A stretch of DNA of 64,000 nt from Escherichia coli. Its GTDB lineage: Bacteria; Pseudomonadota; Gammaproteobacteria; Enterobacterales; Enterobacteriaceae. The DNA is taken from assembly GCF_013315695.1 (NCBI RefSeq), contig NZ_CP054353.1; one strand, written 5' to 3'. Below are positions 42,760 through 43,863 of the stretch, one piece after another (positions within the stretch are counted from its first letter, which is position 1; the number at the start of each line of letters is the position of its first letter). The notes beneath the pieces are model-generated. The model worked only from the letters and a program-made list of their open reading frames with translations, had not been told where the DNA came from and ran no database searches. The translations under genes were made by a program, and so were the position numbers.

Positions 42760-43863
42760 TTAGAACTGGTAAACCAGACCCAGAGCTACGATGTCATCAG
42801 TGTTGATGCCAGCAGCGCGGGTGAACTGGTTGTCGTCCAGCAGGTTGATTTTGTAGTCAACGTAGGTGGACATGTTTTTGTTGAAGTAGTAGGTCGCACC
42901 AACATCAACATATTTCAGGATATCTTCGTCGTCGTAGTTACGAGTACCGATGGTGCCCAGGTTTTTACCTTTAGACTGCAGGTATGCTACAGACGGGCGC
43001 AGACCGAAGTCGAACTGGTACTGAGCAACAGCTTCGAAGTTCTGTGCTTTGTTCGCCCAACCCAGGGAACCTACGCGAGTTGCGTTGTAGGTCTGGGTGT
43101 ACTGAGCAGCCAGGTAGATGTTGTTAGCGTCGTATTTCAGACCACCAGTGTAGGTTTCAGCACGGTCGCCAGTACCGATCAGGCCAGTGTTGTTCTGATC
43201 CCAGGTACGTTTGGAGCTGGAAACTGCAGCACCAACGCCGAAGCCTTCGTAATCATAAGTGATAGATCCGCCGACACCGTCGCCGTTCTGACGCAGAGCA
43301 CCACGACCATTATTGGTCTGGTCTTCACCGCTTACGCTGCCGTTGGTACCCTGGTACTGAACAGCAAAGTTCAGGCCGTCAACCAGACCGAAGAAGTCGG
43401 TGTTACGGTAGGTCGCGAAGCCGTTACCACGCTGCTGCATGAAGTTATCAGAACCGTAGGTGTCGCCACCGAATTCTGGCAGAACGTCGGTCCAGGAAGT
43501 TACGTCGTAAACAACGCCGTAGTTACGACCGTAGTCGAAAGAACCTACATCCTGGAATTTCAGACCTGCGAATGCCACACGGGTCCAGGAGTTGTTTTCG
43601 TTTTCAGCGCTGTTGCCCTGGATCTGATATTCCCACTGGCCGTAACCAGTCAGTTGGTCAGTAACCTGAGTTTCGCCTTTGAAACCAAGACGCATGTAGG
43701 TCTGGTCGCCATCTTCTGACTTGTTGTCAGAGAAATAGTGCAGGCCGTCTACTTTACCGTACAGATCTAATTTGTTGCCGTCTTTATTGTAAACTTCAGC
43801 AGCGTTTGCTGCGCCTGCTACCAGCAGAGCTGGGACCAGGAGGGACAGTACTTTAACTTTCAT
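42760..43863 (-). CDS. ompC: Outer membrane porin OmpC (allele appears to differ from K-12 in loop regions)
   Basis: 367-aa ORF with signal peptide [21 protein letters not shown], porin motifs, C-terminal LVYQF. Confidence 0.93.

Follow-up and report, generated by a model that had tools for sequence, protein, structure and literature searches.

The ompC Locus

The window analyzed in this study is a 64,000-nucleotide stretch of Escherichia coli DNA (contig NZ_CP054353.1 of assembly GCF_013315695.1), and the ompC gene occupies positions 42760..43863 on its minus strand. The gene is an intact, ATG-started ORF encoding 367 amino acids, and its product is identical to the RefSeq protein WP_000865589.1. 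In a profile search, the product scored 763.1 bits against the NCBIfam model for porin OmpC (NF007841; cut-off 484), whereas the OmpF and PhoE models returned 483 and 460 bits, below their respective cut-offs of 583 and 599. The product also matched Pfam Porin_1 (PF00267, E = 2e-140), and residues 22-367 aligned with solved OmpC structures, best with 2xe1 (E = 1.5e-218) and at E = 2.4e-206 with that of K-12 (2j1n). Residues 1-21, the signal peptide (codons at 43801..43863, minus strand), have the K-12 sequence, as do the last 10 residues, which end in VYQF with its C-terminal aromatic. A 16-stranded beta-barrel with an inward-folded loop L3 is a fold that we assign by homology alone. An AlphaFold model of the allele, based on an alignment of eight E. 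coli alleles, was unusable (mean pLDDT 28.2, pTM 0.18), and loop positions were taken from the published annotation of solved homologues together with sequence matches to OmpC structures.

A hairpin resembling an intrinsic terminator (AAAGGGCC-TGCG-GGCCCTTT, followed by a run of T; 42722..42741, minus strand) lies 19 nt 3′ of the ompC stop codon. The downstream neighbor is apbE/ftp (41593-42648, minus strand), with ada beyond it. On the upstream side, two genes are divergent from ompC: that for the small RNA MicF (44197..44290, plus strand; Rfam RF00033, 116.8 bits with a gathering threshold of 79) and rcsD (44602-47274, plus strand). The order apbE, ompC, micF, rcsD is that of K-12. Family score, locus order, export and assembly signals, and a fold recognized by homology with the PEFGG motif in L3 all agree with membership in the OmpC family, and the product is the general-diffusion osmoporin OmpC, a beta-barrel trimer encoded by a chromosomal gene in its normal place. 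The 334-bp spacer between ompC and micF, which holds the ompC regulatory region, is 99.4% identical to that of K-12. Since it differs at just 2 positions, ompC regulation is probably K-12-like. A promoter consensus scan of this spacer gave hits no more numerous than in shuffled sequence. The micF gene itself is intact; it departs from K-12 at a single site and has a terminator hairpin of its own at 44262-44284.

Strain Background

The original prediction that the strain is not K-12 is borne out by ompC itself, which shares 91.7% DNA identity with its K-12 counterpart, and by the neighboring genes, which share 95.0-99.5% (ada, 95.0%; alkB, 95.7%; apbE, 96.8%; rcsD, 99.3%; rcsB, 99.5%). Five genomes, MSB1_4I, MS 21-1, OZ547117, OZ546925, and OZ546911, are 99.99-100% identical to the window over 24 kb, bar an IS1 copy found only in the window. 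The 768-bp element lies at 51565-52332 with a 9-bp target duplication and interrupts the sensor kinase gene atoS, leaving an N-terminal ORF at 51031-51645 and a C-terminal ORF at 52381-53646. Its InsA (52002-52277, minus strand; Pfam InsA domains) and InsB (51580-52083, minus strand; Pfam DDE_Tnp_IS1) reading frames were recognized, and IS1 is absent from the atoS site of all five of these otherwise near-identical genomes. With atoS interrupted, the use of acetoacetate and short-chain fatty acids is probably no longer inducible through AtoSC.

Differences from K-12 OmpC

The product was aligned, as both protein and DNA, with MG1655 OmpC (b2215, NP_416719.1; L001:5647-6750:-) from NC_000913.3. 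The two proteins share 94% amino acid identity, which excludes exact identity to K-12 OmpC, and are separated by 22 substitutions, a four-residue deletion (GFTS), and a four-residue insertion (TIGT). That both are 367 residues long is a coincidence, with GFTS missing from L4 and TIGT added in L7. With strands and loops delimited from the structure as in Beck et al. (2016, S1 Fig), 17 of the 22 substitutions and both indels were placed in extracellular loops (two in L1, six in L4, seven in L5, and one each in L7 and L8). Changes thus affect 17/118 loop positions vs. 5/228 positions elsewhere (one-sided Fisher p = 2.4e-5), confirming that the loop differences are real and beyond chance, as had been proposed for the surface loops, here identified as L4, L5, and L7. 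The three variant peptides quoted at that time are all present in the translation, at residues 171-189, 217-235, and 300-316.

In loop L1 (43711..43731, minus strand), the K-12 sequence SDNKDVD is replaced by SDNKSED through D49S and V50E. The six substitutions of L4 (43291..43347, minus strand; type c15) include P177V, and the GFTS deletion in the same loop takes out F182. Loop L5 (43165..43209, minus strand) carries its seven substitutions as type a11, the CFT073 type, and L7 (42925..42963, minus strand) is of type i, the type of the uropathogenic strain (UPEC) 536, with the TIGT insertion and G309N. In L8 (42796..42843, minus strand), D350A and the adjacent N357D together make up the CFT073-type version. 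Loops L2 and L6 and the constriction loop L3 have the K-12 sequence; in L3 (43444..43521, minus strand), which contains PEFGG and G137, this holds for all 26 residues. The conserved barrel segments had been described as matching K-12. They nearly do so, apart from five conservative strand changes: I214V, G216A, and I218V (K-12 numbering) in strand beta10 (43210..43251, minus strand), L296V in beta14, and N357D where the last strand begins. These five changes, together with L1 (DV to SE) and D350A in L8, are differences from K-12 additional to those originally pointed out.

Allele Type and Frequency

When typed against known ompC alleles by the scheme of Beck et al. (2016, S2 Table), the allele was L4-c15/L5-a11/L7-i, each loop peptide matching a catalogued variant. 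More than 220 OmpC variants have been described, with modular combinations of L4, L5, and L7 (PMC5056734). WP_000865589.1 is annotated in AR_0077 and MSB1_4I, and the exact protein occurs on 790 public contigs. The annotated ompC genes of AR_0077, MS 21-1, and others are 100% identical to the window gene. Among 5,426 complete E. coli genomes, the whole gene was found at an identity of at least 99.9% in six (five at 100%, one at 99.9%), the next best match being 98.8% identical. The exact 60-nt L4 segment is present in 8 of the 5,426 genomes, the exact 54-nt L5 segment in 640, and the exact 49-nt L7 segment in 437; L4 is thus the rare component of the allele. The DNA encoding c15 (43294-43353) exists in two versions, that of the window in 8 genomes and another, differing at 2 of 60 nt, in 6. 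Alleles of the B185 type, with otherwise K-12-like L1, beta10, and L8, are included in the second version. Given these two DNA versions, one loop peptide is found on two different backbones. In the first ~100 rows of S1 Table, where alleles go by GenBank ids, a search for c15/a11/i turned up the B185 entry, typed c15/a11/e.

Comparison with individual alleles shows which parts are shared with which relatives. K-12 MG1655 OmpC (2J1N) has length, locus, neighbors, signal peptide, L2, L3, L6, and nearly the whole barrel in common with the window protein, but its L4 and L5 are both of type a1 rather than c15 and a11, and its L7 lacks TIGT. The nearest different allele in complete genomes, that of E7-1N7 (WP_139571693.1; 98.8% DNA identity), encodes a protein that differs from the window's solely in L7, where it has VVAG (type c) in place of TIGT (type i). 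The OmpC of LF82, which is CFT073-like, shares L1 (SDNKSED), the beta10 version, L5 a11, and L8 with the window protein over long stretches of identical DNA; the differences between the two proteins are confined to L2, V106I, L4, and L7. In alleles of the CFT073/LF82 type, L2 reads APESENN (SAENENN in the window), residue 106 is isoleucine rather than valine, L7 is of type c, and L4 is of type b1, which is 8 residues longer than the window L4. According to a published alignment, the beta10 version is also that of CFT073 and 536. The best-scoring solved structure, the 2xe1 chain, is likewise of the CFT073/LF82 type, but its L1 reads SDDKSVD, unlike the window's SDNKSED. The published c15 representative, B185-type OmpC (WP_000865579.1; 95.7% DNA identity), has the same L4 and L5 peptides as the window, whereas its L1, beta10, and L8 are K-12-like, its L7 reads VING (type e), and its L4 DNA has two mismatches in 60 nt. 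Finally, O157:H7-type OmpC (c2/a6/e; the loops of the PDB 9wcb chain; ~94% identity to K-12) resembles the window protein in having a short L4 of the c family, with V177 but without F182, yet has SPLY in L5 and VING in L7 where the window has NTGL and TIGT.

Mosaic Structure of the Gene

The window gene was compared with seven other alleles, and these eight alleles are too few to fix the direction or the donors of recombination events. Of the 13 nucleotide differences from E7-1N7, whose L7 is of type c, ten are clustered in a 63-bp patch at 42944..43006 (minus strand), an intragenic recombination patch, and the tract outside it is otherwise only ~0.2% diverged between the two. The allele of strain 550 is identical to the window over 42896-43170, which spans this patch. 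On a larger scale, the window and AR_0077 agree without a mismatch over a 1,689-bp block at 42356..44044, which takes in ompC together with the 3′ part of apbE and the greater part of the spacer toward micF. Outside this block, 141 sites in 13.1 kb of AR_0077 flank (~1%) are different from the window; the block is a recombination segment that the two have in common. Both sites bounding the block (42355 and 44045) are positions at which E7-1N7 also differs from the window, and because of this coincidence, AR_0077 seems to combine flanks of an E7-1N7-like haplotype with the window's ompC block. In the comparison with K-12, dS is 0.33 in the loops vs. 0.13 elsewhere and dN 0.109 vs. 0.009, with dN/dS below 1. 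Since dS and dN are both raised in the loops, the pattern fits the import of diverged segments.

Mosaic evolution of ompC (bioRxiv 10.1101/2021.09.21.461324) and a recombination hotspot at the gene (PMC6970295) have been described. The region 39760-42000 (alkB, ada, and the start of apbE) is unusually diverged from K-12 relative to the rcsD/rcsB side, and part of ada (~41010-41181) is dense in differences from AR_0077, E7-1N7, and STEC299, most of them at sites common to the three comparisons. This suggests several haplotype blocks and hence a wider hotspot around ompC.

Predicted Pore and Surface Properties

Since the barrel, the trimer-latching L2, and the pore-constricting L3 match those of K-12, permeation should be K-12-like, and the pore would be expected to behave like that of K-12 OmpC. 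The lumen residues G137 and R195 (K-12 numbering; R191 in the window protein) are retained. In a low-permeability allele described for ST38/phylogroup D, these positions are occupied by the negatively charged D137 and E195 in K-12 numbering (Patino-Navarrete et al., 2020, PMC6970295); with G137 and R195 kept, the window gene is not an allele of that type.

The exposed surface, as judged from the loop sequences, is a different matter, and its changes would alter recognition by OmpC-binding phages, CdiA effectors, and antibodies. Adsorption of phage T4 needs loops 1, 4, and 5 of K-12 OmpC, and P177V or F182A alone blocks wild-type T4 (Suga et al., 2021, according to the review PMC9603124); the loop-4 phenylalanine had been noted for T4 by the same group (PMC5221442). 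In the window protein, residue 177 is valine, F182 falls within the deleted GFTS, and L1, L4, and L5 all differ from K-12. Because of V177 and the loss of Phe182, wild-type T4 is predicted to be unable to use the window OmpC. The O157 protein, which has the same L4 features, reportedly does not serve as a T4 receptor (PMC5221442). Phage PP01 depends on the L7 motif GVIN and makes contact with Ser225/Pro226 in L5 of O157 OmpC (PMC12892980), whereas the corresponding window sequences are GTIGT and NNTGL. Lacking GVIN in L7 and Ser-Pro in L5, the window OmpC is probably not usable by PP01.

Recognition by the contact-dependent inhibition effector CdiA-EC536, for which OmpC is a receptor together with OmpF, is decided by L4 and L5; the pairs b1+a1, c1+a1, and c6+a6 and the chimera c1+a11 are recognized, and b1+a11 is not (PMC5056734). 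The window pair c15+a11 resembles in sequence the recognized chimera c1+a11, with c15 and c1 differing at four L4 positions (K173T, G181D, M182Q, and D188G, window numbering). As for colicins, OmpC is a poor alternative translocator of ColE9, which threads through the lumen, where the eyelet rather than the surface loops is limiting (PMC8561637). As the route of colicins is through this lumen, which is unchanged in the window protein, the loop changes are unlikely to affect them. The original suggestion of altered phage or colicin susceptibility is consequently retained in its phage part, which the published T4 data together with V177 and the absence of F182 make well founded as a prediction. 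Its colicin part is the weaker one, as entry is lumen-threaded and L3, G137, and R195 are as in K-12; a change of colicin receptor, considered as a candidate, was judged unlikely on these grounds.

Discussion

In the current study, we characterized a non-K-12 ompC allele of E. coli. The gene is intact, and its loops were very probably assembled by homologous recombination from cassettes circulating in the species. By this account, the backbone is of the CFT073/LF82 kind, fitted with L2 as in K-12, the rare L4 c15, and the type i L7 found in UPEC 536, and the gene has also passed from one lineage to another in a block no longer than 1.7 kb. A trivial origin of the loop differences, whether through errors of sequencing and assembly or through decay of ompC into a pseudogene, can be set aside almost entirely, as the frame is intact, the K-12 signal peptide, the C-terminal YQF, and the terminator are all in place, and identical copies exist, of the gene in five independent complete genomes and of the protein on 790 contigs. 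Alternatively, point mutations and small indels could have built up the differences within this lineage under diversifying selection, without recombination. Such a route would be in keeping with the 12-fold higher dN in the loops than elsewhere and with the positive selection on ompC in E. coli reported in references cited in PMC5056734. However, mutation in place sits poorly with L5 and L7 segments shared nucleotide for nucleotide with 640 and 437 other genomes, with a loop dS that is raised as well (0.33 vs. 0.13) at dN/dS below 1, with ten differences in 63 bp from the otherwise almost identical E7-1N7 allele, and with an identical 1.7-kb block set in the diverged flanks of AR_0077. Taken without recombination, it is therefore very improbable.

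The functional meaning of the assembled loops is a separate question. That the allele is one of reduced permeability and antibiotic resistance, either of the ST38/phylogroup D type that recombination has spread in carbapenemase producers or as an L3 eyelet mutant, is brought to mind by the name of one carrier, AR_0077, which suggests an antimicrobial-resistance collection, and by the replacement of ompC through recombination in multidrug-resistant lineages (PMC6970295). Nevertheless, with K-12 residues at 137 and 195 and an L3 that is K-12-like over all 26 residues, we regard this reading as extremely unlikely. It is also conceivable that the loop changes have no functional effect and form a neutral marker, with OmpC shielded by O-antigen or capsule or with no relevant phage or CDI system encountered. 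Masking of OmpC by O-antigen or capsule, neither of them apparent from the window, could leave phages unaffected by the loop differences; T4 adsorption is strongly inhibited by O-antigen even in cells supplied with K-12 OmpC (PMC5221442), and the rarity of the allele gives no sign of a sweep. Against neutrality, K-12 is no longer infected by T4 after a single residue change at either of two positions that are altered in the window protein, swaps of L4 and L5 switch sensitivity to CdiA-EC536, and the L7 motif GVIN decides PP01 adsorption, so that a silent surface is a minority possibility, although one of some weight. At the other extreme, the combination of an acidic c15 (GEDQ vs. GEGM) with a11 and i might constitute an escape surface selected by an OmpC-dependent phage or CDI system, which we consider doubtful. 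If it were so, the 1.7-kb block shared identically by AR_0077 and the MSB1_4I/MS 21-1 group, two unrelated backgrounds, would reflect recent selective spread rather than chance recombination.

The allele is uncommon but catalogued, the probable product of a well-described process, and so an ordinary strain marker whose biology is already known. Through it, the window is linked to a handful of human-associated genomes (MSB1_4I, MS 21-1, OZ547117, OZ546925, and OZ546911). Its importance beyond typing is small: recombination is documented to shuffle OmpC loops as modules, and this is another case. The allele also yields a testable prediction for phage work: T4, other phages dependent on K-12 OmpC, and PP01, which depends on O157 OmpC, should not use this porin, while pore behavior and colicin entry should be K-12-like.
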